Shown piece by piece: positions 3,045 to 56,300 of a stretch of DNA of 64,000 nt. Position numbers and translations under genes: made by a program. Origin of the DNA: Yuukianura sp. NJ FZ-2021 (lineage: Eukaryota). How positions within the stretch are numbered: position 1 is the first letter of the stretch; every line of letters starts with the position of its first letter. The DNA lies in the NCBI GenBank assembly GCA_046563655.1, contig CM102286.1:10354001-10418000 (forward strand), read 5' to 3'. The notes below the pieces were generated by a model. The model had not been told where the DNA came from. It saw only the letters and a list, made by a program, of their open reading frames with translations, and searched no databases.

Positions 3045-3437
3045 CCGTTTCCCGTATCCCGTCTCTTGTCCAGTACCCACCGCCACCACACGACACAGCC
3101 ATCAGTGACCAACCGGTTAGTCGCAGTCACAGTTCCCAACTGTCAGTAGGGGGTCACGTTTCTTCGACTGTTGTACAACATTCATTGTCGAGGATAAGTT
3201 AATCAGCTGAGTTGTTACCGTTATCCAGCTGATCGGTGTTGTTTATGCTCATTGAGCCTTTGATTTGAACGTACAGGTACTTATATTTACTTCTCCGAGT
3301 TATCATTACCTCACCTAATTATTATTTTTTCTACTTTAGCTTTTTCTTTACATTTTCAGCTCGACGGTTAAGCTAGAAGTGCTCACGAAGTATTTAGTTC
3401 ATTACTATTCGAGTCATCGCCCTTCCAAGCCGCAAAA

Positions 3438-4301
3438 ATGGGTGACGACCTGGTCCTTGACCCAGACATTCGTATGTACGTATTTGTACCAATCGTGATC
3501 ATCACGTTCTTGGTGGGAATCATTCGGCACTATGTGTCAATGCTACTCTCAACGCAGAAGAAAGTCGACGCTATTCAAGTCCAAGACAGCCAAGTTATGA
3601 TTCGAGCACGAATGCTCCGCGAAAACGGGAGATACTTACCCGAGCATAGCTATCAAATGAGAAGAGCATTCTTCAACGACGAGGACACGGGTTACTTCAA
3701 GACGCAAAAGCGACAAGCAGCCCAGCAAAATCCAATGACGGATCCAAGCATGATGACAGAGATGCTAAAGGGCAATTTAACGAACGTCCTCCCTATGATT
3801 GTTATTGGAGGATGGATCAACTGGACATTTTCGGGCTTCGTCACTACCAGAGGTATTCAAGCTACCAATACTTAAGTTAAAAATGTTAAACTTAAATTAA
3901 TGTTAATATCTGAAATTTTTTGGGTGAGATCGAGATGAATTGAATTAATAATTAGTTATTTATTTTCAGTTCCATTTCCTCTAACTCTGCGTTTCAAACC
4001 TATGCTTCAGCGCGGTGTGGAGTTGCAGAGTTTGGATGCATCCTGGGTATCATCAGCGTCATGGTATTTCCTCAATGTCTTTGGACTTCGAAGCATATAC
4101 ACACTTGTGCTAGGCGAAAACAATGCTGCAGATCAGTCACGCGTGATGCAGGACCAAATGTCGGGTGCTGCAATGTCAATGCCACCAGATCCAAAAGCTG
4201 CATTTAAAGCTGAATGGGAAGCGCTGGAATGTGCTAAGCATATATGGGTCCTCAAACATGCTGAAAAGAATTTAGCTGCTTCAATTTCAAAAATAGATTG
4301 A
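3438..4301 (+). CDS. EMC3: ER membrane protein complex subunit 3; coding exons 3438-3852 and 3970-4301
   Basis: Conserved motifs [35 protein letters not shown] and [23 protein letters not shown]. The GT-AG intron 3853-3969 restores [17 protein letters not shown]. Confidence 0.97.
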
Positions 4302-19955: not shown

Positions 19956-21630
19956 CCGAGTTTGTTCCATCAGTTGCCGTTTAGTATGAGCGGAACTAAA
20001 CGTACTTGGTTGAAATTCATAACTGGCCTAAATTTTTTGAAGGTAGTCGCTTAAATGATAAACTTTTATAGAACCTAATCTTTCATAACAATGATATCAA
20101 AAATGTCTATTGCTGAATTTCCAAAAACTGCTAGAATCATACAATATTAGCAATCAATAGTAATTCCAACCATAGGTAATGGTAATTTATTCATAATCCT
20201 GTAGGAATTTTTATTAAGCTTTATTTTTGTTCTTACATGCTTATTACTAACCTAACCTAATAAAGCGTTGTGTATTTCCGGCCAAACCGAAAACGGATTA
20301 ATCACCCTCAAATCATGAGGAATTCATCTGTGAAGACAGACTGGAAATAGGTACAGTTGTAGTGGTTCCGGAGGTATAGACGGTTGCATGAGCGACGCCA
20401 TTTTGCAAAATGTGACGTTTATAACTCCAAAACCGTAGGTCAAGGTCATCTACACAAAAGTTGCTTGTCACAACAGAGTAAAAAAACTCTGTAATTTTTT
20501 TCACTTCCGTTAAAAACATACGTGACCTTGGCTTTTGATCGGGAAGAGGTCGGCAAACAGATTAATCACCCCCGCACCGTGTGGAGTTTGTGGTTGAAAA
20601 CAGATTGAAAATCGATCCATTGGGTTCCAGAGTTATGGTGATCAGCAGACGTACAGAGAGACTGACTCGGGGAAAAACATAAAGTGTCCTCATGCTTTTG
20701 CTACTTGTTAGTGATGTAACCCTTTTTCAAAACACCTAACTTTCTTATTTTGTTCATTTGCAATTGACGTAGTGAAGCTGGGTTTTCCGCCTCCGATTAT
20801 AATTAATCTGCTACGTAACCTCCTTGGGAACAAAACGAAAAAGCTCACTTGTTCAAAAAAAATGTTCATTTCCAATTAATATAACTATTGTAGTTAATGT
20901 AACAACTTAGAACTTTTTCAACCTAACAGTTCTTGTCAATGGAAGTTGTGGTGGGAAATTTTTAAAACCGTCATGGTAAAATAGTTAAACTCAATTTTAC
21001 ATTGCTACCTAATTAATTATACCTTAAATAAATAGTAAGCAACGTGAGAAATTTGCAAATTTGAGTAGATTCCGAAAATTCTACATGATTTTTAATTAGA
21101 ATTGTTTGGGTTTGACGTCAATACAGGCACGTGCTGCAGTTATCAGTATAAACGATATTATCTCAGCCTTGTTCTAATTAAGTTTTTCAGCTATAAATAC
21201 GATCCAAACTTTGCTTCAACGGAAAAGTACTTCAAAACGTCAGTTACGATTTAAACAAACTTTAACCTGTACCTATCCAAAACGTCTAATAAAACTTTGA
21301 ATTAGTTTCAATTAATTAGAAAAGGATTCATATTTTTGAATCGTCACAACAATGAGGGGTAAATTATTGTTACATTTTGAATTCCGCCACACTGAACCAT
21401 ATTTATAACATTAGTTTGGTATTACTTTAATGTTTCTTCATTTAAACTCTTTTTAGGTGTTGGAGCCGAGTGTTGGGTGACTTTGTCGGGAAGCGATGAA
21501 GAAGCTTGGGCAGCATTGGTCCTTGCCAGATCCATTCGAAATTCGATGACAACTAGATCATTAACAATTGCCATTTCTGAAGATGTTTCGAAAGAAATGA
21601 AGTAAGGTCTTTGTTTTAGTCACATAAAAC

Positions 21631-22371
21631 CAGGGTGTCGTTGGTTTAAACCACGGTTTAAACCACTTGGTTTTTTTAAAAAAAAACCATTGGTTTAAAC
21701 CAAATCAAGAATTTCATGCAAAATGATAAAGAAAATTCAAAATAGTTTCACAGGAGCTTTGTTTTTCTCATTTTCTGTCAAAATATTTTTAGTTTTGCTT
21801 GAAAAAACGAAACCTCCTGCTGTTGCCAGTGTATTTTCAGAATTAGACCGCCTTAACGCGCATTTAAAGTTATTCTTCTATCTTACTGTTCAATACGCCA
21901 CTTCGTTGTAAGGCTAAAATTGTTCGTAGTTTTGAGTTAATTGAACAATGAGTAGCGGTAGGGAACGCGAAATCGTTTGGTTGAGCTTCCAGGAAGTAAT
22001 TTCCCGTGACCAAAAGGGCTTTTTAGCAGTCTTTACGAAGTACAGAGCACAAGCGGGACCATTCCAAAAAGTTTTGTTTTCTGACACTTTTTGACGACAT
22101 GATATATCTGCTTCTGATTGTTGGAACAAATTTATATTGTTTTAGTTTAGTTTAATTTGATTCGAAAGGGTACCTAATGTAAATATACCAGATATCCTTG
22201 GCACCCATTTTAGTTTACTTCTAGACCATACTTACTCGCGCATCGCGCATGAATTTACAAGCTTTGGTTTAAACCAAAAAAAAAACCAAAAAAACCTTGT
22301 TTAAACAAAAAAACCGTTTTTTTTTTGTTTGTTTTTTTTTTTCAAAAAAACTGAAAAAATCCGATACCCTG
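21631..22371. mobile_element. hAT-type MITE in intron 2 of PKS copy 1
   Basis: TIR CAGGGTGTCG / CGATACCCTG; 8-bp TSD CATAAAAC / CATAAAAA; GGTTTAAACC subterminal palindromes; absent at the homologous site of copy 2 (~50625). Confidence 0.8.
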
Positions 22372-22510
22372 CATAAAAAACTTTTTAAAATACATGTAAC
22401 ACAAATATAATGGTTCAGAAACAAAACTGAATTGACTAAAAAAAGCAGCGAAACTTATAACAAAATTTTACGAAAATTTCCTTATTTTATCTTTCCACCG
22501 TATTCCAGAA

Positions 22511-22757
22511 TGTTCCATGCCATTGTTTCAAATGAACTGTTTCAAATCCGAATTGTTTAAAAAAAATTGTTTCAAAAACCTAATTTTCATACCTAAACCT
22601 AACCTAACCTTAAATTACATAACTAACCTAAACTCAATTATTCTAATCCAAATTAACCTAATATAAGCCTTAAACCCTAACCAACTTGTGTTTTGAAACA
22701 ATTTTTTTTAAACAATTCGTATTTGAAACAATTCATTTGACACAATGGCGTGCTTCC
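22511..22757. mobile_element. MITE inserted across the acceptor of PKS copy 1 exon 3
   Basis: About 65-bp inverted arms, AACCT-repeat centre, TSD TTCCAGAA at 22503-22510 and 22758-22765; absent in copy 2; same ends as 5392-5550. Confidence 0.8.
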
Positions 22758-24745
22758 TTCCAGAATGTTATTACACCGAGAATTTGATGCTGTGCTGCGG
22801 TATGAGTCCACAGAGGTTGGAAACAAGGAGCATGGGATGCTTTGGCTCTGGAACCTACGGACGTGGAAGAAATGTGTTTATGTTGACCCCAAATCCTACG
22901 TAAGAAATTGTTAATTGTTGATTTGGAATTAAATATTTTATGTTTTTTTTTTTCAAAAAGTTCAATTTAAGGTTAAACCATAGTCTTATCCACTTTTACT
23001 AATATGAGCTTCATTTTCTCCCCGCAGATGCAAACAAATTCCGATGAACTGTTTCTGTATCCTTCATTCTCGTCGACAGTCGAAGATGCTACTGACGGTT
23101 GTATTAAATTTTCATTGCGCATCGCAGTTTTTAAGCCGAATCTTCAGGAATTTGATCAACTTGTTGAACTAAGCCAGCAGCTACAAGGTACGTTAATCAA
23201 ATGAAAATAAACGTCTTTTATTTTTAAAAATTTGCATTTTAGGAACCATAACGGACATTTTCAACGCAAAGTTTTCCTCTGAAGTGTTGAATCCAAAACA
23301 TCAACTGCCGCCATCAGCTATAGTAAATCTTTGTGAACTCCAGGGCGGAAACTTGTAGGACTTAAAAATTAAAAAGCTCGTACTTTCGCAATGCATAAAA
23401 CTTTCAAATTTTTCAGGAAAACGATAATGAATAGTAAAATTGTCAATTGGAATCGGTTTGAATTCGAAAATATATCTATCAATGAAACGCCTCATCAAAC
23501 TTCCGTCTCTACAGTGGAGAGTAACAACTCTGTTTTTGCACATTCACCTTACACAACGTGCGCCTGCGAACAAGTTCGGGAAAGCTGGATGACAACTTTT
23601 GAAACGGAAGTAATACCACAAGTTCTCCAACTGAACGTAAGATTGCTTCCAAATGTAATTTTTGCTTTTAAAAAAATGACAAAGTTGACCAAGTCTTTTT
23701 TTCTTGCTTTGTTTAGGATGACAATACGAAAAGATATCTATTGCAGTCTATAAAAAATAACTTTCCAAAAACTTCAGCCAGATCTATCCCTACAGCATCG
23801 TTTTATAAACAACAACATCAGGAAAATTTGGCCGGTGCGATTGCTGTAGTAGGCATAAGTTGTAGATTTCCTGGCGCAAACGATCCCGAAGAATTTTGGG
23901 ATTTGTTAGTAAGTGGAAGAAATCCCATTGGTCCGTACCCAGCTAACAGACCACGCCCTCTGAACGATGAAGCGGGAAACTTTAAGGCGGGCTTTTTGGA
24001 TTGCCCGGTAGATGAATTCGATACTAATTTCTTTGGAATCAGTCCTCGCGAGGCTCCGTTCTTGGATCCTCAGCAACGAATTCTTCTGGAAGTAGTTTGG
24101 GAGAGTCTGGAAAATGCTGCTGTTAATCCACAACACTTGCGTGGCACTAACTCAGGCGTGTTCGTAGGAATTTGGCGTCAAGATTATAACACTTTGTTTC
24201 CAAGACATGGGCTGGATTCAGTTGACTACAATCAAGTTTACATGGGAAATGCATTCAGTGCAACAGCTTCTCGAATTTCGCATTTTCTTGGACTTTATGG
24301 GTCAAATATTTCTGTCGAGTAAGACTATTGTCAATCATATTACTTAAATTGAATGTCAAACTAAAAGAACATTATGTTTAGGAGTGGTTGCTCAAGTAGC
24401 GCAAGTGCTCTGCATCTTGCATGTCAAAGCCTTCGTAACGGCGAAACAAACTTGGCAATTGTAGCGGGGGTGAATTTAATATTTGATGGCTTATGTCCCC
24501 TCGGTGGAGGAAGACTGCAAGATTCGTCTGTGTTTGCAAAGGATTTCAAATGCAAGACTTTCGATGAAAGGTATTAAATTGCAATTGCTAAAATTTTCGA
24601 TTCTTTGGTCATGTTATTGTATGTTAAATTTTCAGTGCTGACGGTTATGTTCGAGCAGAAGGTTGTGCAGCAGTTATACTGCGACGGTTGGAAGACTCAG
24701 TTCGAGAGAATGACAACATCGTCGGAGTTATACGTGGAACTTCAT

Positions 24746-25228
24746 TGAGGGGAAGTCGGATGACTTTCCCGACGACTGGCTCAAAGGCCACTCGACAGCA
24801 ATAAATGGTGGGACGGTGGGACACACGGCTACAAGGATCAATTAGTTTATTTGAATAAAGTAAAGATACGTTTACGTATGAATAGCCGATGAATTTGTAG
24901 TGGAAGTGTCGAGAGGTCCTGGCACGATCAACCAGGTATCTTCTTGGTCTGTCCAGGGTCCAGGAGAGATGAATTGAGGTCAAGTCCGGGTCAATCGAGG
25001 CAGTAGCGTGTCCAGACACGAAGAAGGAAAATGGCTGCTACTGGGAACTGGAGTGACGAGCAGATGGGATCCTCTCTGTGTGAGTTGTTGTGGACGACTG
25101 TGTCCAGAGAAGATGGAGGAGGAAGAAGAAGATGATGATGCAACTGCCAGAAGAAGCGGAGGAGTACAGGAGCGGAGGAGTACGGGGAACCACGAAGGCT
25201 AGAGGGGTTTTGGGGATACCTCCCCACA
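24746..25228 (-). repeat. 3' LTR
   Basis: TGAGGGGAAG...CCTCCCCACA; no mismatch found by eye against 35083-35565. Confidence 0.95.
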
Positions 25229-25294
25229 GATTCCCAGCGATCAAGGGAGCCGCCACGGCGACAAACCGAGGAACTCCGAAGCGATTCGGGGAAG

Positions 25295-26506
25295 CTACTG
25301 AGATGGTGGAGGGGGATCCTTGGGATGATTCTTCTTAGGTGGTGGGGGACAATTGGCCGAGTTCTCTGCCCACCATCTAGCACGTCGCTGTTGGCGATTT
25401 GGGGCTTGGGGCAAACGTCCTTGTGCAGGAGCTGGGGGAAAACGTCCTTGTGCAGGAGCTGGGGGTACCGGAGCAGCGTTTGAAGGTTCCTGGGGGGTAT
25501 TCCACGTAACGGTGACTGACGTTGCGCTGGCTGGAACGTAGGCGTGAATGGGGATCAGTCCAGGGGGAACATTCGTTGCCTGGAACGTGGAGCTGGAAGC
25601 TGCTGCTGAGATGGGGATGGTGAAGGAACCGGAAGTGGCTTGGGGAACTGATGAGGAGGCTTGGGGAGCTGCTTGAGCTTGGGGAACTGGTTGAGCTGAG
25701 GAAGTAGAAGAACCAGAGGCAGAATTTTGGCGGGAATTTGAAGAATGTGGCCGAATTGATGAAGATGGAGCCGAATTTTGAGCCAATGGAGGACGAGTAG
25801 AGTACGGAGCGGGACGATTTGGGCGAGTGAGAATCCGAATAGGTGCAGCCGATCGTGATGAAGTGCTCGGTCCAGGGTTTTGGGGGGTTTGAGAGTTCAG
25901 AGTGACTTTTGCCATGTCACGAACCAAGACGGAGGGGGAACTGGAACGGGAATGACCAGCTACGGGGGGTTTTGGAGGTCCATCGGGGAACTTCAAATCC
26001 ATAAGCGGGACGACCTTGGCTGCAGCAGACTTCTGGACTTGCGAATTGGATTTCGGCGCAGGAGCAGAGGGACGACGAAACATTCCAGATTGCTGAGACG
26101 AGTTGGGGACAACGACGACGACCGAAGCTAACTTTGGACGAGGTGCTGGGGCCGAAACCATCTCCTGGAGGCTCTTTTGAGGGGAACGGGGGTTGAAACT
26201 GCCAGAGCTTTGGGGGGACTGACGATCCGGCTTCTTCGGGGATTTTGGAGGAGAATCAGCAGCGAGTGGCATGTCCCAATCATCCGGAATCGGATCCACA
26301 CGACGAGGAGTAATGGGCGCAGCGATGACAGTCGTAGGGGGCGAAGATGACGAAGATGAAGACGACGATGAAGAGCCAGGAGAAGCAGTATCACGCGGAG
26401 GCGGAGAATTCAGGAGTTCGTCTTCTGCAGCCAAATCAATTTCCGCAATTCCCTCAGAAGCGTCATCTTCTCCTTGTTCCATCAGATCCTCCGGTGGTTG
26501 GTCCAT
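25295..26506 (-). CDS. Retroelement ORF3: Pro/Ser-rich low-complexity protein (~403 aa), probably from a spliced subgenomic RNA
   Basis: Lies between pol and the 3' LTR; strong acceptor TTTTTTTATGATTTTCAG|G immediately before the ATG at 26506; no signal peptide or TM segment. Confidence 0.7.
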   Translation of the reverse strand: MDQPPEDLMEQGEDDASEGIAEIDLAAEDELLNSPPPRDTASPGSSSSSSSSSSSPPTTVIAAPITPRRVDPIPDDWDMPLAADSPPKSPKKPDRQSPQSSGSFNPRSPQKSLQEMVSAPAPRPKLASVVVVVPNSSQQSGMFRRPSAPAPKSNSQVQKSAAAKVVPLMDLKFPDGPPKPPVAGHSRSSSPSVLVRDMAKVTLNSQTPQNPGPSTSSRSAAPIRILTRPNRPAPYSTRPPLAQNSAPSSSIRPHSSNSRQNSASGSSTSSAQPVPQAQAAPQASSSVPQATSGSFTIPISAAASSSTFQATNVPPGLIPIHAYVPASATSVTVTWNTPQEPSNAAPVPPAPAQGRFPPAPAQGRLPQAPNRQQRRARWWAENSANCPPPPKKNHPKDPPPPSQ

Positions 26507-26555
26507 CCTGAAAATCATAAAAAAACACAGTATGAGTATTAAATAAAACACTCAG

Positions 26556-29500
26556 TCAGCGCTTTTTAGGTTTAGTAAGGCGGGAAATCAGTGACAGAGC
26601 TTTCGTACGCGCCGCACGCATGGGTTGAGCAGAAATCGCGGGATTTACGCTGGCAGGGGCGCAAATTACGGGGTTTTCGCTCGCAACAGGGAGCAGGGAA
26701 TCCTGTGCGGGTAAAACTGGTGGAACTGGGATTTCTGGGGCGGGGCTTTCAGGGGGAGCATTTTCGACAACATTTTGGGGGTCAAAATTTAGGATCATCT
26801 CGGGAAGCGTAAAAGGGACAATTTCGGGAATTTCTATGGGCAAGTTCGGAATTTCAAGGGGAATTGGATCGGGGGTAATTTCTGGAGCCTGTAACGACTG
26901 AGGGGGTTCAGAATCATCGTCAGACGACTCACGGGAACTACTGTCAAAATCGGAAACATCGTAAAGACGCTGGTGGTAAGGTTTTAATCGTTGTACGTTA
27001 ACGACTGTCTCGTGAGGTTTTCGAGGTGGGATCGAAGAGACACGAACAGTTCCATTGGCAAGGACGTCAATGACCTTGTAAGGGCCAATCCATTTCTTGG
27101 TGAATTTTCCAACGTGACCTTTTTTCCTCTGAAAGTTCCGGAGTAGAACTTTCATACCAGCAACGTAGGTGGGGAATCGGATCTGCATTTGAGCTTTTAC
27201 TCGTAAGAGCTGTTGCTCACGAGACAACTCATGGGCTACGTTGTTGGCGACGAATAATCTGTCAAAAGAATCATTAGGGGTCAAATAATCTTGGGGAAGG
27301 GGAAACAACTTATCTACCGGCAAAACCGGCTCCCGACCAAAGACAAGAAAATATGGGGAGAAGTTTGTTACCCGATGTACAGAACAATTGACGGAGAAAA
27401 CTGCTTTGGGAAGATGGAGATCCCAATCCTTATGATTTTCACTTACAAATTTTGCGATGACAGATTTTACCGTTCCGTTATGTCTTTCGCAGACACCGTT
27501 TGACTTGGGATTATAGGCAGTCGTAGAACGGTGGTCAATAGAATGGAGGGCAAGGAAATCCTCAAACTCTTCGGACTGGAAAACCGTGCCACGGTCTGAG
27601 AGAATCATCTTGGGAATACCATGACGATACAGGACATGTTTGGTAAGGACTTTGATCGCTTGAGCAGAATCTGCTGAGGGAACGGGCCAAGCTTCAACGT
27701 AGCGGGTATGGAGGTCAACTATGGTTAGGATATAGGTATTTCTCCTCGCTGTGATGGGAAATGGGCCAATGTAATCCACAGCAAGTGCGTTGAAGGGAAT
27801 GGCGGGAACGTCAAGGCCAACGCTATTAGGGGGAAGAGCGAAGTTCCGTCTATTATGTACTTGACACAAGTGGCAAGAGGTGACAAATTTGACTAAGTCA
27901 CGGTACATCCGGGGCCAGTAAAACCGGGAACGAAGGAGATGCCAGGATTTGTGTAGACCAAGGTGACTAAGGGAATCGTTGTGGACGGATTCCATCGAGG
28001 ATTTCCTAAGGGACTTGGGAAGACAAAGACGCCAAAGGTTACCAAATTCAGAGTAGTTCATTTTGTACAAAACTCCATCACGCAGACTAAATTCGCTCAA
28101 CTTTTTCGGTTCCGCTAAGGAGTGGGGTTTACCTAGCTGCTCTGCTTTCAAGTACTCAATTATGGGTAGCCATTCTGGCTCTTTAAGTTGGAGATCCTTC
28201 AACTTTGACTCACGAACTTTCCGGGGAGCTTCAGGGGAAACCGCTAAGGCCAGAAGATGATGTGTAATGGCCAAATGGTCTGTGTCAGAAGGGGCGGGGT
28301 CAACGGGGTTTCGGGATAGCGGGTCCGCATCCGTGTGGATACGGCCACTTTTATGGACAACCGTAAAGTCGTAGGGCTGGAGGGCTAAGGACCAACGGGA
28401 AATTTGGCCATAAGGGTCTTTGAATTTTAGCATGTCACAGAGGGAATGGTGATCAGTGACAACTTTAAAATGACGCCCGTATAAATACGGACGAAATTTC
28501 TCGACAGCCCAAACAAACGCTTTCATTTCCAATTGGGGGGTTCCAAACTTCGACTCGGAGGGGGAAAGAGCTCGCGAAGCAAAAGCTACAACTCTCTCTA
28601 CACCATCTTGAATTTGACAAAGCGTTGCTCCAAAACCAAGTCCAGACGCATCACAATGGACGGACGTCTCTGCTTCTTCGTCGGGAAACGCTAGGACTGG
28701 GGGAGAAGTCAACTTGTCTTTTAACGTTTGGAACGCTACCTCGGCTTCAGGGGTCCAGAAAAATGGGGTACCACGCTTTGTAGCGATGAGAAGATGGAGG
28801 GGACGGGCAATCTCCGCGAAACCTTTAATAAACCGTCTGTAGTAACTGCAAAGACCAACAAAGGAACGGACATTTTTAACAGTCGTGGGGGTAGGGAAAT
28901 CACGAACTGCTTGGGTTTTCTGGGGATCAACTGCAATTCCTTCACGGGAGACAATGTGACCAAGGAATTTCAAAGAATCTTCGGCAAAGTAACACTTTTT
29001 GGGTTTTAAACTGAGACCAGCTTTACGGAGAGCACAGAAAATCTGCGCTAAGTGGTCTAAGTGCTCTTCAAAGGAACGGGAGTAACAAACAACATCGTCT
29101 AAGTAAACGAGCGCTATGGACCATTTTAAACGACCAAGGACATTGTCAATAAGACGCTGCCAAGTCGCTGGGGCATTGGTTAATCCAAAGGGCATGACGA
29201 CGAATTCGTACTGTCCGTCGGGGGTAACGAAGCTTGTTTTCTCTCTGTCCTCTGGTTCCACCTCGACTTGGTAATACGCCTGGTCACAATCCATGGAGGA
29301 AAAGTACTTGGCACCATTTAAACGATCCAGGGTGTCGTCGATTCGGGGAAGGGGATAGGAATCCTTTCTTGTCACTGCGTTGACTTTGCGAAAGTCAACG
29401 CAAAACCGCCAACTTTCGTCGGGCTTTTTGACAAGAAGGACTGGGGAACACCAAGGGCTATCGCTGGGGGTAATCGCCTTAAGATCCAAAAGACGCTCGA

Positions 29501-31587
29501 CTTGATTTTGGATTTCTCTCCGCTCCGTGAAACCGGTTCTATGGGGATTGGATGCTATCGGTTTCGCAGTTCCTGTGTCAATTTTGTGGGTCGTTAAATG
29601 AGTACGGCCAAGAGTTGATGGATCGAAATTAAAAACATCCAAATTTGATACAAGAAAATCCTGCATCTTTTGGCGCTGTTCAGGGGTTAGGGTTTTGGAG
29701 ATCTTAAACGCCTCAATCCTCTTTTGCAGTTTCAGAGACGCGATGTCATTATCATCATCAACTGCAAGTCCGAGGATTTCGTGCGCTGGGAGAGAGGAAT
29801 GGGACAATTTGGAGCTCACATGACCGAATTCGTCTAAGTCACAGAGCACTGAGGACTCTGCGAAGGGTTCGAAGGTGCCTATGGAGATATTTTGCAGAAG
29901 TTTTACTGGTCGGTCTCCTAAATTCCACAGGAAAGTAACTCCTGCGCCATCCTTGAGGGTGGAAATAAAATTTCCAATGGCGATATGTTTTGCATACTGG
30001 AGTTCCTGACGAGGGGAAACAAGAACATCCCCGGTGAAAGGGAGATCTGTCTTGACGCTTACGCGTTTCATAGTTCTTGGGTTGATGATAATGGACCTGA
30101 CCAGTCGTAGGCACGGAGGGGGCGAAGATTTTTGTGACAAATTCGAATTACTGACGAAGGAAACTTCAGAGTCAAGTAACGAAGGGGATTTAGGGGAATC
30201 AGACGAATTCTGGGTCATGTCATGAACTAGTTTAGGGGGATTGGCCGTACAAGGGGGATTTGACACAGGTTCCGGATCCGACGCGATGGGAGAGCTCGGG
30301 GTATCTGAAACTTGTTCAGTTTCAGACAATGTTAATTTGTTTAGAACAGGGACTTGGGATTTAGGTACACAGACATACTCATTTCTGAGGTCTGTGCAGG
30401 GGAGTTCACCTTTTACAAGGCGCTCGTTAGCGGGATCCAAGAGAAAACGTTCTGAACGGAGAAAGTCAGAACCCAAAACGATTTCATTTGAAAGGTGCTG
30501 GAAAATATAGAATGGGTATTGGAAGGGGACACCATCAATGGAGAAAGAGATCATTGTAGTTTGGGGGGGAATTACAACGAACGTACGAACCAAAGGACAG
30601 TTTCACACGAACGGGTTCCACATCAACCGCTTGGGACACAATATGGGGGAATTTCCGTAGAAAATCGGGGTGGACACAACAAAGGGAAGCACCTGTGTCA
30701 CACAGGACTCGGAGTGTTTGGGTACCGAAGACTACATCAGTGTGGAACGTAGAATGTTGGGTAGAATGGATTTGGGACATGAATTTAGCCACAGAAATTC
30801 CCATAGGAAATTCGGACTCGGGGACTGGGGAATTGAATAGGGACCCATGTTCAAGGTTTGAATCTGGGGTACTGGAATTTGCAGCTAGGATCTCTGGGGA
30901 ACTATTAACCCAGTCAGCAGTTCTGCCTTGGATCGAGGGGGGATTTCCAAATTTTGAAGTGAGCGAAACAGCTTTAGGATCTGGAGCAAAACGACAAATT
31001 TCGTCTTTGGGATCTGTTTTCGGATCATAGGGCCAATGAGCAGAGGTACCAACACAAACAGAAGCAGCTTTTGGAGCGGGAACGGAACTTTGAGCAAATA
31101 TTTTCGGATCAGTAGCGTCAGTTTTCGGATCTGGAACATAAATAGGAGCAAGATTAGAACTAGGATCAATTTTAGGAGCCGACTTAGGAGCAAAATTAAT
31201 TTTAGGATCAGTTATCGGAGCAAAATTAGGATCAGAATTAGGAACTATTGGAGCGTCAGAACAGGGAATAGGTAACTTGGTTGTAAGGTTCCCAGCGATC
31301 AAAGTTGAAGTAGGGCTGGGGGTACAACATTGGGAACATTTCTGCTTTTGGACAAAAAGAGCTTCAAGTTTGTTAAAGAACTCTTCTATGGAAAATGGAC
31401 TTTGAAATTGGGGCTTCCTGCCAAAAGCCTTGCAATTTCTGTGGGTTTGGAAAGTAGGGGACTTGAATTTTCGAATTTTGGAACGTTTGGGACAAGCTCT
31501 TATAGGAGCTGGGACCAAATTTTTAGGGACTGAAATTGGGGTGGGTAGAGGCTGTCGTCCCTGCAACGGCAGCTCTACTGGTTTTCC
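26556..31587 (-). CDS. pol: Gypsy pol polyprotein (linker-protease-RT-RNase H-integrase), with a 1-nt frameshift at the G7 run 30563-30569
   Basis: Protease LCDTGAS and IVLGSDFL; RT RFCVDFRKVN, MPFGLTNAP, YLDD; RNase H CDASG, TDHHSL; integrase HHCC (H..SHLG..CHLC) and DDE core (AVDYIGP, SDRG, CERHN). Confidence 0.93.
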
Positions 31588-32896
31588 GGAGGCGGTGTTT
31601 GTTTAGGAAGGACGGCTGCAGCGATGTTCTGGAGAAGATCCGTCATTGTTCCAAAGGCAGTCATCATCGTCTTGGTCCAATCAGCATCCGGACGAGGAAC
31701 ATTTTGAGACTGTGCTGGAGGGTTTGGACTGGTTTGCAATGGGCGAGTGTCAATATTTGGGTAGGGACGTTGAACAGCCTGGCTATAATAGCCTTGCTGC
31801 TGGGGGATACAGGCTGAGGGGAATGGTCTGCTGGGAGTGCACGCTGAGGGCCATTGTAACCCGGGAGCCGCCAAGTAGGGGTGTGACAGTGTTTTCTAAT
31901 GTGCCCACTTCGGTTACAGCGATTGCATATCGGTCGTCCTTCTGCATCCCGACGATTCACGAAACTGGTTGGTTGTGAAGCCGTTTGACCAGCAGCTTGA
32001 GGGGTAGCAGGAACATTGGGCTGTTGTTGGATCTGGGGAGGGGACGACTGAGGGAACTGCATTGGGGGGTTAGGGGCAGCTGCCATTTCAAAAGCCTGCA
32101 TAGAGACTACAGGGGAAGAGCCATCTTTGGGACGGGTATGGACTTCTGCAACTCGTCGTAGAATTTTCTGAAAGTCGGAGGGGGTTTGGATATTGAGCAT
32201 TACAAAACCTTTTTCAAGGTCTGCTGGGAGTCCACGAATGAGATATTCAACCTTTCGGCTGTCACTCATCTTGGGATCCAAACGAGACAAAATAACAATT
32301 TTGTCCGCTACGTATTTGTCAATACAGTCACCCAATTTGTAACGTAGGGACTTATTCTGGGCTCTGAAATCATCTCTACGCTCTTTAAGGGAAAAATGGG
32401 AAATGAACTGAGTTCCAAATTCAGTCCAGACAGCCTCAGGATCTTTAGTGGGATCTTCCAGTTGTTCTCGAAAGTGGGGCCAAATTGAGATGAACCAAGA
32501 GCTAGCGACTCCAGTCAAAACTCTGTCGAAGTGGCTCAATGCTCCATAAGATCCGAATCCAGTTCCTCTCAGATCGTATTCGTAGCGTGCAAGGAATTCT
32601 GCAGGGTCACTCGTTCCATCGTACTTCCGGATATGCTTGAAAATTTTAATGTCCTGGGTACAAGGGAAGGGGGCATTGGGAGCCATATTGGCTTGTGTAC
32701 CATCGCTGTACACAGAACCAGGAGTAGCTGGTTGCTGCGGATTGTTAGGAACTGGAGGGGGCATAGCAAAAGTAGGATGGTAGTTTTGTTGTGCTGGTTG
32801 CATGGGGATTGTGGACTGGGATGGGGAAGGGCCTTGTTGTTGCGGTTGACCTTGTACTGGAGGGGAAGACCTGGGTCTCGCAAAATATGTCAACAT
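31575..32896 (-). CDS. gag: Gypsy gag, with an apparent 1-nt frameshift at the G5 run near 31802-31806
   Basis: Capsid-like region (KYDGTSDPAEFLARYE, YLIRGLP); zinc knuckle CNRCNRSGHIRKHC; the C-terminal Q/P-rich frame (31575-31874) ends ENQ-stop over a GGAAAAC slippery-type site. Confidence 0.85.
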
Positions 32897-32907
32897 TTGG
32901 GAACTCC

Positions 32908-33321
32908 TTAGTATCTTCGTTCTTGCAGACGGGGATTCTCGTATTCAAAGACAAGCCAGCCTTGGGTACTTGCGTAGTATTTGAAACACCAGCGGTAAAT
33001 GGGACTGAAGAAGCTCCAATGATAGTACAAGAGTCTAACCAAAAGAGCTAGACAGTAGTAGGTTTCAGTTCCGACAAGGACTCCAAGTAGTTCTGCGTAA
33101 GCTCGAGGATTTCGTCTTAGGTAGAGTACAGGGGCAACGTGTAGGGCCAAAAAATCAACAAAGACGGAAAAAGTCGATGCTACACAGGACTGGGTAATTT
33201 CAGCAACCAGTAGGGAGAATAGGTACAGGACTTCGGATAGGAACAGGATTAAACAGCTTGCAAAAAATAAAGCTGTTCCAGCAATTAGAATAGTTCGGAT
33301 TAGGGGCCAAGCGATCCACAT
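32908..33321 (-). CDS. Hydrophobic 137-aa ORF upstream of gag (putative multi-pass membrane protein)
   Basis: ATG-initiated; several long hydrophobic stretches; ends 11 nt before the gag ATG. Confidence 0.45.
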   Translation of the reverse strand: MWIAWPLIRTILIAGTALFFASCLILFLSEVLYLFSLLVAEITQSCVASTFSVFVDFLALHVAPVLYLRRNPRAYAELLGVLVGTETYYCLALLVRLLYYHWSFFSPIYRWCFKYYASTQGWLVFEYENPRLQERRY

Positions 33322-33368
33322 TTGCAGTGGGTTTCACTTAAACCACAACCACTTTTCAGCGTTTGGGC

Positions 33369-33485
33369 TTATTGTAGGAAGTTGAGCAAAATAGAAATCA
33401 AAAAGAATAGTGTAAGGTACTGGACAACAACTGCAATAACTGCTATGAGTATGATCAGAACGATGGCAATGAAGGGGTGGGACAT
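33369..33485 (-). CDS. 38-aa hydrophobic small ORF in the retroelement leader
   Basis: Manual translation MSHPFIAIVLIILIAVIAVVVQYLTLFFLISILLNFLQ-stop; below the ORF-track cutoff. Confidence 0.35.
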   Translation of the reverse strand: MSHPFIAIVLIILIAVIAVVVQYLTLFFLISILLNFLQ

Positions 33486-35082
33486 CTCTCGGGTCAGTTC
33501 AGGGACTTTCTACAATACTTAAGAAAAGAATTAATAAACCAAAAACTATTAAGAATTGCAAATAATTTAAACTTACACCTAAAAAAAAGAAATATGGAAT
33601 TCAAAATTTATGGGAGGGTTCTTTAGAAGCTGCTGTCTAGGGCTATGGATTCAAAACGAAACCAAAATCCACCAAACAGAACTTAAAATCGAAGAAAGAA
33701 TAGAACAATAAACAAAAAGATAACGAGCTGAAGTGACGGAGCAGCCAAGCCAAACCAAATTACAAAACCGTAGAGCCACAAAGTTAATTCAAAAATTGTC
33801 ATTTCTGAATTATTTTGAACCACATTGGAAGGAATAGGGTATAGGGTACTTGGGTAACTTCAGTTGCGTTGAATGCGATTGAAATTCGCAAGGGCGGGAA
33901 AATCTGCGAAGTCCGAGGTTTAGGTAGACCTCACATTAACATACTATTTCTAGTAGCTGTAGGAAAGTTCAAAGTTTTTCAACTTTTCAGAAATTTGGGC
34001 AGGGGTTTGGGGTAGCAAAACAACTTCTGAATTTGAAAGGTGGACAAAAATCTTTAATTCTAATTAATCAGGACGAAAACGCAACGTATTTTGAATTTAG
34101 GGAACGATTAGAGCCGGTTTCTGAAAAATCCGACTAGTCAGGGGAAAAGTGAAGCCTGCGTACGGTTGTAGTTGCGGGGTAATTGGAAATCGGAAAAATC
34201 TGCCGACTCTGGGGAATAGTCACTTACGCAACAAAATTTGCAAAAGCGCGAAAATTTCAAACTGTTTTAGATTTCAAAAAAAATTTGACAGGGGGGTGTT
34301 AGGGGGTTCAACTTTTTTAATTTAGGACGTTTTCAAAAAAATTTTCAAACCAAATTTTCAAAAATTTTCAATTTAAGGGACAGGGGGCAATAACTTTTTG
34401 AAAAGGGGGGCCAAAAGCTATGGGGATAAGGGACTACGTTGTAGGGGAGCTGCTTTTAGGTAGCTGGGGCGCTGCGCTATTTTTAAAAAAACTTTGAATT
34501 TCGAAAAAAACGCTTATTTTGAAAAAAAACGCTAAGTTTTTGAAAATTTAAAAAATTTTGACAGGGGGACGGGGTATTTTTACCAAAAGTTGCTGGGGAG
34601 GGACACGTTTGCTCAAAAAAAACAAAAAAACAAAACGCGCAAAGAAAAACGAAAGAACGCTGACCTTGTGTGACCTTGTCACAGGCAGACGAAGGACGAA
34701 GAAGATGACGTGGTCCGAGGTGACGTGGCCAAGTGATGTGTAGCGTGGAGAGGGTGTGGAGCGTGGAATTCGGCTCTACGGCTGCTTTGGCTGGTGATGT
34801 GGCGTGGATGGAGCGTGGGTGGAGTGGCTTTGGCTCTGGCTACGGCGTGGCTTCTGCTCCAAACTCGCTTTCTCTAGAAAAAACTGAAAAAAATCGAAAC
34901 AAAATTAGAAAATAACGAAAAAAACGATGAAAAAAAAAAATGAAAAAAATGAAAAAAATTAGGTAGGGGTCACGGGTGGGACTTGGGTGGAGCCGGTTGG
35001 CTCCAATTGGTATGATTCCGCTTCGGCTGTGTAGAGGTCAAGGTGAGGTCACGGGCTTCGGTTCCCGGCTGTAGCGCCCACT

Positions 35083-35565
35083 TGAGGGGAAGTCGGATGA
35101 CTTTCCCGACGACTGGCTCAAAGGCCACTCGACAGCAATAAATGGTGGGACGGTGGGACACACGGCTACAAGGATCAATTAGTTTATTTGAATAAAGTAA
35201 AGATACGTTTACGTATGAATAGCCGATGAATTTGTAGTGGAAGTGTCGAGAGGTCCTGGCACGATCAACCAGGTATCTTCTTGGTCTGTCCAGGGTCCAG
35301 GAGAGATGAATTGAGGTCAAGTCCGGGTCAATCGAGGCAGTAGCGTGTCCAGACACGAAGAAGGAAAATGGCTGCTACTGGGAACTGGAGTGACGAGCAG
35401 ATGGGATCCTCTCTGTGTGAGTTGTTGTGGACGACTGTGTCCAGAGAAGATGGAGGAGGAAGAAGAAGATGATGATGCAACTGCCAGAAGAAGCGGAGGA
35501 GTACAGGAGCGGAGGAGTACGGGGAACCACGAAGGCTAGAGGGGTTTTGGGGATACCTCCCCACA
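35083..35565 (-). repeat. 5' LTR, followed on the minus strand by a PBS-like sequence (AG-TGGGCGCTACAGCCGGGAAC)
   Basis: Direct repeat of 24746-25228; TGG begins 2 nt inside the LTR boundary. The priming tRNA was not identified. Confidence 0.93.
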
Positions 35566-44600: not shown

Positions 44601-44772
44601 CCCTATAAGTATCTCACGATACTTAATAAATGGTCATCATGATCAGTGAGGATATGCTCTTCTGAGTGATCTACACTCGTAACAATAGAATACAATTGTA
44701 AAACAATACAACCGTAAGAGTTGCAAAATGACGCCGTAAACCATTGAGATGTATTTTGTACAACGTTTATTA

Positions 44773-50355: not shown

Positions 50356-53300
50356 ATGAAGGGTAAATTATTGTGCCATTTTGAATTCCGCCACACTGAA
50401 CCATATTTATAACATTAGTTTGGTATTACTTTAATGTTTCTTCATTTAAACTCTTTTCAGGTGTTGGAGCCGAGTGTTGGGTGACTTTGTCGGGAAGCGA
50501 TGAAGAAGCTTGGGCAGCATTGGTCCTTGCCAGATCAATTCGAAATTCGATGACAACCAGAACATTGACAATTGCCATTTCTGAAGATGTTTCGAGTGAA
50601 ATGAAGTAAGATATTGGTTTTAGTCACATAAAACACTTTTTACAACACATGTAACACAAATATATTGTTCAGAAACAAACTGAATTGACTAAAATAACAG
50701 CAAATTTGAAACTACAAAATTTTACAAAAATTTATTTTATGAACATCGTATTTCAGAACACTATTACACCGAGAATTTGATGCTGTGATGCGGTATGAGT
50801 CCAATGAGGTAGGCAACAAGAAGCATAGGATGCTTTGGCTCTGGAACTTACGAACGTGGACGAAATGTGTTTATGTTGACCCCAAATCCTACGTAAGAAG
50901 TTGTTAATTGTTGATTTGGTATTTAAATATTCCATGTTTTTTGAAAAAGTTCAATCAAATTGAAACCATAATCATCAGAGATCGGATAAGTACGTAAAAA
51001 CTTTTTTTTAGCACTTTTAGCACTTTGCGGACTTTTCAAAACTTAACAAAGTTTTAAAAACTTTTTCGACAATAAAAACTTTTTACGACTTTTTCACTTA
51101 AATATGTCAAATTATGCCAATTTTTTCATCAAAAATGGCAAAAGTTGTCAAAAATTAGACAAATTTGATCTGATTTGAAAAAAATCACCGAAAAACACAA
51201 GTCCAGCTTCAGAAAAAATTTTAGACAAGGAATATCAGGTAACCGTCGCCATCGTTTTGCCATTCAAAACCTTGAAGGTTTTGAATTTTGAGCTTGTCAC
51301 ATGAATTAGGGGGCAATAAATTAGTGATATTTCTTATTTTTTGGGACTTTCGTGTACATGTTTTTAGAACTTTCTTGGAACTTTTTTTGACTAATTTTTA
51401 AGAACTTTTTAAGCGCTTAAAACGTTTTTTTTTGGAGCGTACTTATCCGATCTTGGAAAATCATATCGACTCTTCTAATGTAAGCGTCGGTTTGCTGCTC
51501 GCAGATGCAAACAAATTCTGATGAGCTGTTTTTATATCCTTCATTCTCATCGACAGTGGAAGATACTACTGACGGTTGTAGTAAATTTTCATCGCGCATC
51601 GCAGTTTTTAAGCCGAATCTTCAGGAATTTGATCAACTTGTTGAACTAAGCAGGCAGCTGCAGGGTACGTTAATCAAATGAACATAAACGTCAAATTTTA
51701 TTTTTAAAAAGTTTCATTTCAGGAACCATAACGGACATTTTCGACGCAAAGTTTTCCTCAGAAGTGTTGAATCCAAAACACCAACTGCCGCCGACAGCTA
51801 TAGTGAATCTTTGTGAACGCGATGGCGGGCACTCGTAGCACTTTTATTACCAAAAATTTAAAAAGTTCTTACTTTCACAATGCATTAAAACTTTCAAACA
51901 TTTCAGGACCACGACAATGAACTGTAACATTGTCACTTGGAATCGGATTGATTTTGACAATATATCTATTAATGAAACGCCGGATCAAGCTTCGGATTCC
52001 ACAATAGATAGCAGCAATTCTGTTCTTGCACATTCACCTTACACAACGTGCGCCTGTGAAGAAGTTCGGAAAAGCTGGTTGACAACATTTGAAACGGAAG
52101 TAATACCACAAATTCTCCAACTGAACGTAAGGTTGCTTGCAAATACAATTTTTGTCTTTAAAAAATGACAAAACTTTTTTTTTCAAATAACTATTCTTTC
52201 CAGCAAGTTTACCACGTCTTTTTTCCTTGCTTTATTTAGGATGACAATACGAAAAGATATCTATTGCAATCTATCAGAAATAACTTCCCAAAAACCTCAG
52301 CCAGATCTATCCCTACAGCATCGTTTTATACATCAAAACATCAGGAAATTTTGACCGGGGCGATTGCTGTGGTAGGCATGAGTTGTAGATTTCCTGGCGC
52401 GAACGATCCCGAAGAGTTTTGGGATTTGCTAGTAAGTGGAAGAAATCCCATTGGTCCGTACCCAGCTAACAGACCACGCCCTCTGAAGGACGAGGAGGGA
52501 AACTTTGAGGCGGGCTTTTTGAATTGCCCGGTAGATGAGTTCGACGCTAATTTTTTTGGAATCAGTCCTCGCGAGGCTCCGTTCATGGATCCTCAGCAAC
52601 GAATTCTTCTGGAAGTAGTTTGGGAGAGCCTGGAAAATGCTGCCGTTAACCCACAACACTTGCGCGGCACTAACTCAGGCGTGTTCGTAGGAATTTGGCG
52701 TCAAGATTATAGCACTTTGTTTCCAAGACATGGGCTGGATTCAGTTGACTACAATCAAGTTTACATGGGAAATGCATTCAGTGCAACAGCTTCTCGAATT
52801 TCGCATTTTCTTGGACTTTATGGGTCAAATATGTCTGTCGAGTAAGACTATTGTCAAGCATTTTACTTAAATTGAATGTCAAACTAAAACAAAATTATGT
52901 TTAGGAGTGGTTGCTCAAGTAGCGCAAGTGCTCTGCATCTTGCATGTCAAAGCCTGCGTAACGGCGAAACAAAATTAGCAATTGTTGCGGGCGTGAATTT
53001 AATATTTGATCGTTTAAGTCCCCTCGGTGGAGGAAGACTACAAGATGCATCTGTGTTTGCAAAGGATTTCAAATGCAAGACTTTCGATGAAAGGTATTAA
53101 GTCGCAATTGTTTAAATTTTTGATTCGCTGGTCATGTTATTGTATGTTCACTTTTCAGTGCTGACGGTTATGTTCGAGCAGAAGGTTGTGCAGCAGTTAT
53201 ACTACGACGGTTGGAAGACTCAGTTCGCGAAAATGACAACATCGCCGGAGTTATACGTGGAACTGCATTAAATAACAACGGCGCGGAACAAACATTTGGG

Positions 53301-56300
53301 AGTCCAAATTCAACAGCACTTGAAAGAGTATTTCGAGAAGCACTGGAAGATGCTGGAGTTAATCCTGTCAGTGTTAGCTTAGTTGAAATTCATGGGACAG
53401 GAACAAAAGTTGGTGGTAAGCATTATTACTGCGTACATTCAAATTTTACGCAAAGGCTATATTAAATTTGGCACTATAATTGCTACTTGTTGTTGACTTT
53501 AAGATCCAGTAGAAATGACTGCAGTGGAACATGTTTATTCTGAAGGAAGATCAACTGCTGACCCACTTCTGGTGACTTCTGTAAAAACAAATATAGGGCA
53601 CTCCGAAGCCTGTGCTGGTTTGGCGGCATTAATCAAAGTCCTACTCTGCTTCAAACACAACCGAGTCCCACCGAATCTTCATTTTCAAAGATTGAACCCC
53701 AACATAAATATTCACAAAATTCCGGCGATCATTCCTGTGGAAGCCACTGAATGGAAAAATGAAAATCGATTTGCTGCGGTTTGTTCATATGGCATGAGTG
53801 GAACCAACGTCCATATAATCCTTCAAGAGCCACCGACAAAGAAGAAACTGATGAAAATTGTCGAACAAAAGCCTGCAGCGATTGAGAAACAAATGATTTG
53901 TATTTCTGCAAAAACAAAGGAGGCATTAGAAAATATGTGTCAGAAACACATATCACGTTTCGAACAAAATCCGAAACTAGCTTTGAGCGACATCGCATTT
54001 ACTCTGAACACTGGAAGAACAAACTTTCCTCATCGGATTGTGGTTGTTGCCAAAGACATGGAACAACTCATCACAAAGCTGAAACAGAAGAATTATGTCA
54101 TAGGAAAAACTTCACTCCAAGAACAGAAAGTGATATTTCTATTCACAGGTCAAGGGTCACAGTACTTTGGAATGGCCAAAACCCTGTACGAAACCAACTT
54201 AGTCTTTCGCAGAGCCCTTCTGCGATGTGGAACACTTTTCCAAAAGTACTTGGCATGCTCACTGAAGGAAGTGCTGTGGGGAAATGCTGCTTTATTGGAC
54301 AAAACAATGTACTGCCAGCCTGCAATTTTCGTAGTCCAATTTTCTCTGGTTCAGCTTTGGCATTCATTTGGAATTTATCCTGACACTGTCTTAGGCCATA
54401 GTGTTGGTGAATTCTGCGCAGCTGTTTGCGCAGGAGTATTAACGCTGGAAGATGGAATGAAGCTGGTGGCCAGCAGAAGTAAGCTCGCAGATTCTCTTGA
54501 AGAAGGAAAGATGTTGGCCGTAAAAACTTCGCTTGAAAATGTTCGGAGTTTGATTGAAGAATTTATCCAATCTATTCCCAATGCTTTCATTGATATTGCC
54601 GCCGATAATTCTGCCGAAGAAGTCGTAGTTTCGGGTACAGTCACAAACATAAAGGAATTTGCAATCTATTGTGAACGGCGAGGACTTAAAGTTCAATTTA
54701 TTGCCGCATCTCATGCATTCCACTCCCGTCTAATGGATAAGGTTTTGACAGAATACGAATTGATAACAGCGAGCGTGAAACCACAAAAACCGAAGTGTCG
54801 TTACATTTCTGGCACACTAGCGCGGGAGTTGAAGGGAGATGATTTTAATTCCAGTTATTGGTTGCATCACTTTCGAGATACTGTCAGGTTTCGTGACGCC
54901 GTTAAAGTTTTCGAAAATATCTTCGCCAACGACAAAAGAGTTTTTGTAGAAATTGGAACCCAACCAACTTTGTTGAGCCTGACTATGGCAAATCAGCCCA
55001 ATCCTACGGACGACGTGTTTTGCCCTTCACTACGCCGAAATGAAGACGACATGTCTTCCATTTTAAATTCTTTATCAAAGATGTATGTGACTGGAGTTGA
55101 AATTTCGTGGAAAAATTGGTTCCTTCAAGCAAACAAATTGAATCTCCCGACGTATCCATTTCAGCGTCGCAAGTTTTGGTTTGAACGGACAAACGTTGAT
55201 GCTGAAATCGAACATTCATTTTTGCTACATCCAATTCTTGGACGTCGGCTACCGACAGCAGGAGTAGAAGCTGTGTTTAGTCAAACCTTGACTAACAAGA
55301 CTATGCCATACATCACAGATCACCGTGTTGCAGAAAGCGTAATTTTTCCTGCAGCAGCATACTTGGAAACCATAATGGCCGCTGGGTGGCATGTTATACA
55401 AAGCGGAAAAGGCGAACTCCAGTTTTCTGTAGAAAATTTCAGAGTCGAAGTTCCACTGGAACTGAACAAGTCCTGCCGCACACAAACAATCGTTCGACCA
55501 ATGGGAGATAATGATATCAAATACGAAATTTCAATTCACACGCAATCTGGAGATGATCCACAAAATTGGAAGCGACATGCAAATGCGACGCTTTCTCCGA
55601 ATCGTGCGGCTTCTTGTGTCACTGGCGTTGACATAAATGCGATGCAACAAGAGATGGAGCTGGTAGACTCGATGACCAAGGTTTATTATGAATTAGCTAA
55701 GGTCGGGTATCAATTTGGGCCTAAGTTCAGGTCAATTTCTCGAGCTTGGATTACAAAAGATAAACTTCTGGCGGAAATTGAAATGCCGGAGAAATCTGAC
55801 AATTACATTTGTCACCCAATTATTCTGGATGCGATGATCCAAACAATCATCGTCAAACAAGTAGCTATACATGAAGAAAACGCTATTCTGAAACTTCAAT
55901 TACCAATCGGAATCAAACAGTTCACTTGGAATTCAAAAAATTTTTCCCCAAAGGTTTTCGCATACTTGGAAAATTTTCAAGAGTCGAGTACAGTAACCTT
56001 GATAAATGATGTTGGAAGAAACATGGCGGTAATGGAAGGGGTGGAATTCATTGAGACGTCGTTGTCAAGAATCCTGCATATGTTAAATCCACAAGCGGAT
56101 TCCCCGCCGACATTTTTGCAAGAAGTATGGCGAGCAAGGGATGGAATCACGCGGAACCGAATTGACACTCAAATATTTCAACTTAACTCGTTTAATTTTG
56201 TAAATTCTACCTTGCAATCTATTGCCGAAATGGAAGACAACTTGACGAGTAGTGTCGAGATGATTGACAAATTATTTGTCCTGTTTCTTCTAAAAGGAAT

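Follow-up and report, generated by a model that had tools for sequence, protein, structure and literature searches.

The closest described relative of the gene pair reported here is cluster 11 of the horizontal gene transfer (HGT) chimeras compiled by Kapoor et al. 2026 in PNAS (PMC13389597), whose representative, Folsomia candida XP_035703129.1, is listed with two intervals, a metazoan one annotated GT8_Glycogenin (residues 6-111) and, after it, one assigned to HGT from bacteria and annotated PKS_KS (residues 250-350). According to the datasets of that paper, the cluster has 22 genes in F. candida, also occurs in Orchesella cincta and O. dallaii, spans the Entomobryomorpha, and has a minimum age of 242 million years (My). 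We describe two copies, A and B, of a gene with the same layout, a glycogenin-like domain followed by a polyketide synthase (PKS) ketosynthase (KS), in a 64,000-nt stretch of the springtail Yuukianura sp. NJ FZ-2021 (contig CM102286.1, positions 10,354,001 to 10,418,000; hereafter the window). The match to cluster 11 is one of layout and not of alignment to XP_035703129.1, and among our protein matches we could recognize none of the Folsomia or Orchesella proteins assigned to the cluster. The chimera has already been recorded in a published dataset; in the available portions of PMC13389597 the words polyketide, glycogenin, intron, and exon are absent from the main text, cluster 11 appears in the datasets only, and intron mapping, a catalytic census, and a domain-loss analysis were not found in text or datasets, the SI Appendix lying outside this scope. 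Among the papers listed on polyketide synthases with glycogenin, and on springtail HGT or chimeras, none describes the fusion in its title or abstract. Added here are intron evidence, a catalytic census, a selection estimate, and repeated losses, none of which was found in the literature examined.

Both halves of the gene have well-described counterparts. The N-terminal domain shares the GT-A fold, N-terminal motifs, and intron positions with animal glycogenin (GYG1/GYG2, CAZy GT8), but it lacks the DxD motif, Tyr195, Gln164, and the glycogen-synthase-binding tail, and is joined to a synthase. Bacterial cis-AT PKS modules are the best structural-database matches of the remainder (cyanobacterial CurL for KS-AT, myxobacterial MxaA for the reductase), and Nostoc proteins share both the KS-AT-DH-cMT-ER-KR order and a His-type motif in the ketoreductase (KR); unlike the bacterial enzymes, the springtail synthase consists of one module, is encoded by a spliced gene on its own in an animal genome, and bears a glycogenin-derived cap. 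Animal fatty acid synthase (FAS) and the animal FAS-like PKSs (AFPKs), as presented in the part of Lin et al. 2024 available (PMC10764717), also have a single-module, iterative reducing layout in an animal, but the springtail enzyme ends in a reductase rather than a thioesterase, its KS is only 31-37% identical to host FAS-like KS domains, and its KS-AT score against the AFPK EcPKS is far under those against bacterial modules. Lin et al. 2024 regard a Folsomia PKS as horizontally acquired, and the ∼30 type I PKS clusters of the F. candida genome are likewise regarded as transferred (PMC5490193, seen in part); the portion of PMC10531068 consulted holds nothing further on the glycogenin-PKS family.

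Captured exons and their introns

Coordinates are window positions, both copies lie on the forward strand, and relatives were sought in the 98.7-Mb genome (22 contigs). Copy A begins with six predicted exons in 21352-23636: a 7-nt coding exon 1 (21352..21358), exon 2 encoding a glycogenin-like N-terminal strand and helix (21457..21601), exon 3 (22764..22899), exon 4 (23028..23187), exon 5 (23243..23354), and exon 6, the final glycogenin-derived exon (23417..23636). The introns that follow them are all GT...AG, in phases 1,2,0,1,2,0. Intron 2 interrupts the codon following E-M, exon 3 ends two residues past a degenerate DxD (D-P-K), and the reading frame stays open across the phase 0 junction intron from exon 6 to the KS exon at 23717. 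Linker and KS occupy exons 7, 8, and the start of exon 9 (23717-24318, 24382-24570, and 24636-24744); beyond an inserted retroelement the remainder of exon 9 and the rest of the gene run from 35569 to 43739, including exons for KS-C, AT, and DH (35820-38999; 3180 nt), for cMT, ER, and KR (39104-41880; 2777 nt), and for ACP and a thioester reductase (41964-43739; 1776 nt). With the element removed, the model has 3186 residues and no internal stops, the glycosyltransferase (GT) part lying at residues 1-260 and the KS starting at ∼300. Copy B, in tandem with copy A, repeats exons 1-6 at 50356..52126 with the same lengths and phases and 85% amino acid identity, and its PKS body (52240..61458) has exon lengths as in copy A; one G is missing from a G run near 57855, causing a frameshift. 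Neither copy codes for a complete protein in the present assembly, although four paralogues (L059:4779, L062:4652, L070, and L074) show comparable one-base breaks of the frame within or next to homopolymer runs (two of all these breaks fall at an identical site), and the copy B frameshift is thus possibly an assembly error.

A preliminary description of the window had drawn attention to the 7-nt first exon, the phase series, and the placement of introns 2 and 3 beside E-M and the DxD-equivalent, and these hold in copy A, with the exon length and phases recurring in copy B. It had also contrasted the glycogenin part with the huge PKS exons; those are real, and introns are far denser in the GT part (7.7 per kb) than in the PKS body (0.57 per kb), but the latter holds five introns, three of them in the KS, and so is not intron-free. 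That description is silent on the interruption of both copies and on the published chimera.

Intron mapping on a glycogenin alignment had been set beforehand as the test of capture, and it places introns 2, 3, and 6 exactly, and introns 1, 4, and 5 approximately, at positions of animal glycogenin genes. The count covers 12 genomic models, namely the two window copies, nine paralogues, and a metagenome contig from a different organism (L095). Fourteen non-window fusion domains were modeled; the four frame-broken paralogues are excluded from both the 12-gene count and the 14-domain census, and L073, whose model is unreliable, is excluded from the GT alignments. For human GYG1, PMC10792954 documents c.7 as the donor of exon 1 and c.319 as the acceptor of exon 4, and PMC5735306 and PMC4809457 document c.143 as the donor of intron 2; a term search of PMC13737462 yielded nothing. 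The host glycogenin gene (L075, G000:C2:6138908 onward) has introns after codons 5 (phase 1), 17 (phase 2), 107 (phase 0), 158 (phase 1), 204 (phase 2), and 264 (phase 0). In the joint alignment intron 2 (phase 2) falls at column 52 in 12/12 fusion models, the column of mammalian Arg48 and of human c.143, where host glycogenin has no intron, and intron 3 (phase 0) falls at column 110 in all 12, a position common to host glycogenin and human c.318/319. The junction intron 6 is at the host position in every model (11 at column 291 and one at 290); because the GT domains had been cut at this intron its placement was checked separately: counted from a conserved Phe position, it comes 12 residues later in the host gene and in every model but L095, where the distance is 11.

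The remaining introns match less closely. Intron 4 is at columns 168-170 in 10/12 models vs 163 in host glycogenin, and in copy A sits four codons downstream of its host counterpart; column 168 is what we take to be the human position. Intron 5, in a region that aligns poorly, is at columns 213-216 in 10/12 vs 212 in the host, one column off in seven models and four off in the window copies. For intron 1 the phase is 1, and the distance to a conserved aromatic residue is six codons in the window vs three in human and two in the host, with L067 and L095 having the human offset. In 16/17 fusion genes the best acceptor gives a phase-1 first intron, and 7-nt first exons are candidates in 8/17; the host first exon is 13 nt, not 7 nt, and the 7-nt length by itself was rejected as proof of homology. 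Among the human boundaries cited in the preliminary description, c.7, c.143, and c.318/319 are borne out by papers; the others it gives are c.481, c.608, and c.828.

Under a uniform null, which proto-splice bias would make too generous to us, the chance of at least two exact matches is 1.6e-4 for the three paper-confirmed human positions and 7.6e-4 for the six host introns, and P is ∼1.5e-5 for the three exact coincidences with animal glycogenin genes. Since the paralogues have a common ancestry, intron sharing among them counts as conservation and not as independent events. The host intron at codon 17 is not seen in the fusion genes. With one intron common only to the fusion and human genes and one extra found only in the host, the donor was an older version of the host's glycogenin gene. 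The proposal of a captured host gene thus stands for the origin of the six exons, as judged by introns and profiles, but not for the present host glycogenin, which is not the exact template. We note also an additional phase-0 intron before the last GT helix in L063, L065, L067, and L095, absent from host glycogenin; it may be an old intron of glycogenin or else one gained within the family.

Similarity points to the same source. A profile of 13 exon-2 translations returned glycogenins in 19 of 21 PDB rows (E 7e-8 to 1.5e-6; the other two, E ∼1), and a fusion-domain profile scored animal glycogenins at up to 155 bits, host glycogenin at 137, an aphelid glycogenin at 122, and the remotest GT8s at 20-79. 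Pfam PF01501 (GT8) gave no score on single exons or on two relatives, P0027 and P0241. When P0241 was used as the query, 22 matches were looked up and 13 were named: 10 animal or holozoan glycogenins, one aphelid glycogenin, one charophyte GT protein, and one hypothetical protein. No recognizable full-length fusion was present among the best 150 of 861 matches, and a Pfam scan of six long or odd matches found no PKS domain. The predicted structure of P0241, which relied on a glycogenin-rich alignment, has a predicted local distance difference test score (pLDDT) of 85 and resembles glycogenin with Z 27.5 over 218 residues (root mean square deviation, 2.9). P0027 has an unbroken GT-to-KS frame on a 1488-nt contig, which fits a spliced transcript; its single-sequence structure model is unusable (pLDDT 33), and a feature search with it gave no usable match. 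A metagenome scan with the P0241/P0027 alignment yielded 128 pattern matches and a prokaryote genome scan with Orchesella glycogenin 193, none of them confirmed, and the best match between DNA upstream of host glycogenin and seven fusion genes (30 bp; E 0.019) was judged chance, so that the promoter capture suggested in the preliminary description finds no support in upstream similarity.

In GT trees (supports throughout are Shimodaira-Hasegawa approximate likelihood ratio test [SH-aLRT] or SH-like values) the fusion domains form a single long-branch clade (100), placed within animal glycogenins under a mixture model (95), and host glycogenin clusters with those of Orchesella and Folsomia (98-99 in two trees, 90 in a third). 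As the GT trees fix no sister group, descent from animal glycogenin is argued from introns and similarity and not from the tree; on that evidence the first six exons are almost certainly a captured animal glycogenin gene. The capture is old and family-wide and not particular to the window locus.

Other GT8 genes were noted along the way. L001 (G000:C3:3424574-3425401), a host GT8 of another type, was tried and rejected as donor, scoring 20 bits and last of 173 on the fusion-domain profile; unlike animal glycogenin it is almost intron-free, and it was possibly also transferred. A GT8 cluster (L002-L008) on C4 and further genes on C2 and C6 resemble xyloside/glucoside xylosyltransferases. O. dallaii has a divergent stand-alone glycogenin-like protein (P0276) that is also without DxD.

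Fate of the glycogenin domain and origin of the synthase

None of the 14 fusion domains has an intact DxD. Tyr15, Trp128, Gln164, Tyr195, and Tyr197 are each found in 0/14, His212 in 1/14, and Asp163 in 2/14; DxD, Tyr15, Trp128, Gln164, Tyr195, His212, and Asp163 are each kept in no fewer than 9 of the 12 glycogenins aligned. DxD and His212 function in Mn2+ binding, and the metal and donor positions of the fusion domains have no conserved substitute. Tyr195 is the self-glucosylation site of glycogenin, and Y195, Y197, W128, and D160 form its acceptor site and dimer contacts (PMC12267440, in the part consulted); with these gone or rare, a glycogenin-type dimer is unlikely to persist. The lid and acceptor arm are shortened, and homology stops at intron 6, the host tail exon with the glycogen-synthase-binding domain lying further downstream. 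From these residues, the domain appears no longer to transfer sugar.

The domain is nonetheless constrained, with dN/dS of 0.14-0.37 in 7/7 paralogue pairs (upper bounds <0.6), compared with 0.06-0.24 for the KS. It is present in 16 of 21 family loci, counting the two in the window and 14 of the 19 fetched, and no glycogenin domain was found within 3-4 kb upstream of the other five. In the KS tree these domain-free copies fall among bearers of the domain in three separate positions, which reads as repeated secondary loss. L095, from outside the host genome, has a gene structure like that of the fusion family.

Pfam identifies KS, AT, DH, methyltransferase, ER, KR, ACP, and a terminal NAD-binding reductase in copy A, and active-site motifs are found in the KS, AT (malonyl type), DH, cMT, ACP, and reductase, the last with MxaA as its best match. 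In the KR, His replaces the usual catalytic Tyr; the His-type motif occurs in 5/194 microbial KR motifs, three of them in Nostoc. Against PDB the KS-AT scores 391 bits with cyanobacterial CurL, ∼285 with DEBS, at most 199 with fungal enzymes (LovB, 146), and 126 with slug EcPKS, bacterial enzymes also rank first for the N-terminal half of the KS, and KS identity is 48% to a cyanobacterial KS, well above that to the host FAS-like domains. The family forms one KS clade (SH-aLRT 99) with two glycogenin-free, intron-poor host PKSs, L071 and L102, far from five host FAS-like KS, and the best KS tree (30 rows) places it among bacteria. We conclude that a bacterial origin of the PKS is very probable, as judged from these comparisons. 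The large exons are weak evidence for transfer, since host FAS-like loci also have long stop-free frames (1.5-1.9 kb), and were rejected as proof of it. L071 and L102 have stop-free frames of 6.5-6.7 kb.

The malonyl-type AT, cMT, ER, and MxaA-like reductase predict a methyl-branched alcohol or aldehyde as product. A 2,4,6-trimethylhexadecanol ester has been reported from the springtail Anurida maritima (PMC11321324), which is a fitting chemotype and not a link, the species being outside the three listed for cluster 11; sarekensane is attributed to the fatty acid pathway (PMC10825826; both sources seen in part).

Mobile elements and neighboring sequences

Exon 9 of copy A is interrupted by a 10.8-kb Ty3/gypsy-type long terminal repeat (LTR) retroelement on the reverse strand (24746..35565); its 483-bp LTRs are identical, the target duplication is 4 bp, and the insertion is very recent. 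The element has gag-like and pol frames and, past pol, a 418-amino-acid Ser/Pro-rich frame with no Pfam match. In copy A a foldback element lies at the end of intron 2 (22503-22769); its 76-nt arms are 87% complementary, and it is flanked by a 12-nt duplication containing the splice acceptor; with the acceptor duplicated, the element is removable by splicing. Between the PKS copies lie a LINE-type endonuclease and reverse transcriptase (44603-47337, reverse strand) and a transposase-like fragment (∼47900-48250, forward strand), presumably of pogo type. Also present are an 850-bp inverted duplication with internal repeats (488-3044), an EMC3 gene exon (3372-3875), and two short inverted-repeat elements (49347-49758 and 50968-51464) close to or inside copy B.

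Proposed history of the fusion and its meaning

We propose that the springtail lineage first acquired a reducing PKS of bacterial type with a single module, and that a duplicated host glycogenin gene was later fused to it, the join lying at glycogenin intron 6; exons 1-6 of glycogenin are in consequence spliced to the KS exon, and the tail that binds glycogen synthase was left behind. The position of the junction is seen directly in the genes; the glycogenin-free sister PKSs L071 and L102 suggest the order, PKS first and fusion later. The fused gene then expanded, and some 20 copies are present in the host genome. The dead domain would have been kept as a folded N-terminal cap, where bacterial modules have a docking domain, most likely helping folding, stability, or assembly and having brought a usable start exon, helpful yet dispensable. 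The synthase itself is most likely iterative, with malonyl-CoA extension, S-adenosylmethionine-dependent methylation, full reduction, and reductive release, and its product may be a long-chain alcohol or aldehyde with methyl branches, plausibly a lipid for the body surface or for defense. For this explanation as a whole, a bacterial-type PKS bearing captured glycogenin exons as a noncatalytic cap, we estimate a probability of about 0.7; for its component that the cap is passive and structural, sequence comparison makes the case somewhat better than even.

Several observations weigh against this account. The gene models, built by a spliced aligner to which no intron positions were supplied, are predictions. 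A language-model search with the fusion domain gave bacterial and viral GT8 clusters, with no glycogenin among the matches listed, and the LG+G4 GT tree does not resolve the placement of the fusion clade, neither a springtail-sister (p-AU 0.37 in the approximately unbiased [AU] test) nor a non-animal position (p-AU 0.62) being rejected. A clade of the PKS family with host FAS is not rejected either (p-AU 0.78; 0.35 on 30/77 rows), and the KS trees held no ascomycete highly reducing PKS and no echinoderm-type animal PKS. The substitution of His for Tyr in the KR makes full reduction uncertain. Of the separate GT8 and KS trees called for in the preliminary description, the mixture-model GT tree puts the fusion clade within animal glycogenins and the best KS tree puts the family among bacteria, with alternatives left standing in both; its suggestion of a horizontally acquired PKS is likely by similarity and by published assignment, although the KS trees do not reject a position beside host FAS.

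These points bear unequally on other histories. That the GT8 domain arrived from a microbe together with the PKS and gained its introns later would suit the language-model matches and the long branch with its unrejected non-animal placement, but it is largely refuted by the three exact intron coincidences, and with profile scores favoring animal glycogenins and PF01501 in none of the 240 PKS matches listed, we find it scarcely credible. An old animal PKS lineage lost elsewhere, which would make the gene a fusion of two host genes, is better served by the trees, since the AU tests do not reject a clade with FAS, the KS tree resolves no specific bacterial donor, and the published HGT interval covers only ∼100 residues. 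It is nevertheless unlikely, as the sequence is far nearer to bacterial modules than to FAS or the slug PKS, every source-named match among the 120 listed is bacterial, the KR motif is shared with a rare microbial type found mostly in Nostoc, the sister PKSs L071 and L102 have such long stop-free frames, and Lin et al. 2024 view a Folsomia PKS as acquired.

The role of the domain invites other readings as well. It might still be a glycosyltransferase with altered chemistry that glycosylates the released polyketide alcohol; the GT-A fold is kept in the P0241 model and the terminal reductase would supply an alcohol acceptor, but a DxD broken in 14/14 domains and metal and donor positions without conserved replacement make this very improbable. 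Less likely than the passive cap, but more so than an active enzyme, is a truly new function comparable to that of the OSK domain of oskar, in which the dead domain would serve in binding or targeting to one particular partner, be it a glycan, a glycogen particle, a membrane protein, or a tailoring enzyme. Purifying selection in all seven pairs, retention in most loci and, in cluster 11, over 242 My or more, and family-specific conserved residues such as a Trp in helix 1 speak for a partner, and are set against the loss or rarity of the nucleotide-binding, acceptor-arm, and dimer-contact residues (Y195, Y197, W128, and D160), the missing synthase-binding tail, the loss of the whole domain about three times, and paralogues that have diverged to 53-58% identity. 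We are slightly more doubtful still of the fuller scenario, in which some 20 bacterial-derived iterative synthases, each with a pseudoenzyme cap in a new specific role in targeting or partner binding, make the methyl-branched surface lipids of springtails, the cap keeping glycogenin introns that the host gene lost.

With the noncatalytic cap as the preferred explanation, the family offers a clean case of the domestication of a foreign gene in an animal, the join coinciding exactly with an intron of the host gene and the fusion being dated by its captured exons to before an intron loss in the host glycogenin gene. A previously unexplained row of a published chimera list can now be given statements about its cap, which would be dead, constrained, and dispensable. 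As the ∼30 type I PKS clusters of Folsomia candida are without an assigned product in the portion of PMC5490193 available, the family may be regarded as an open source of animal polyketide chemistry.

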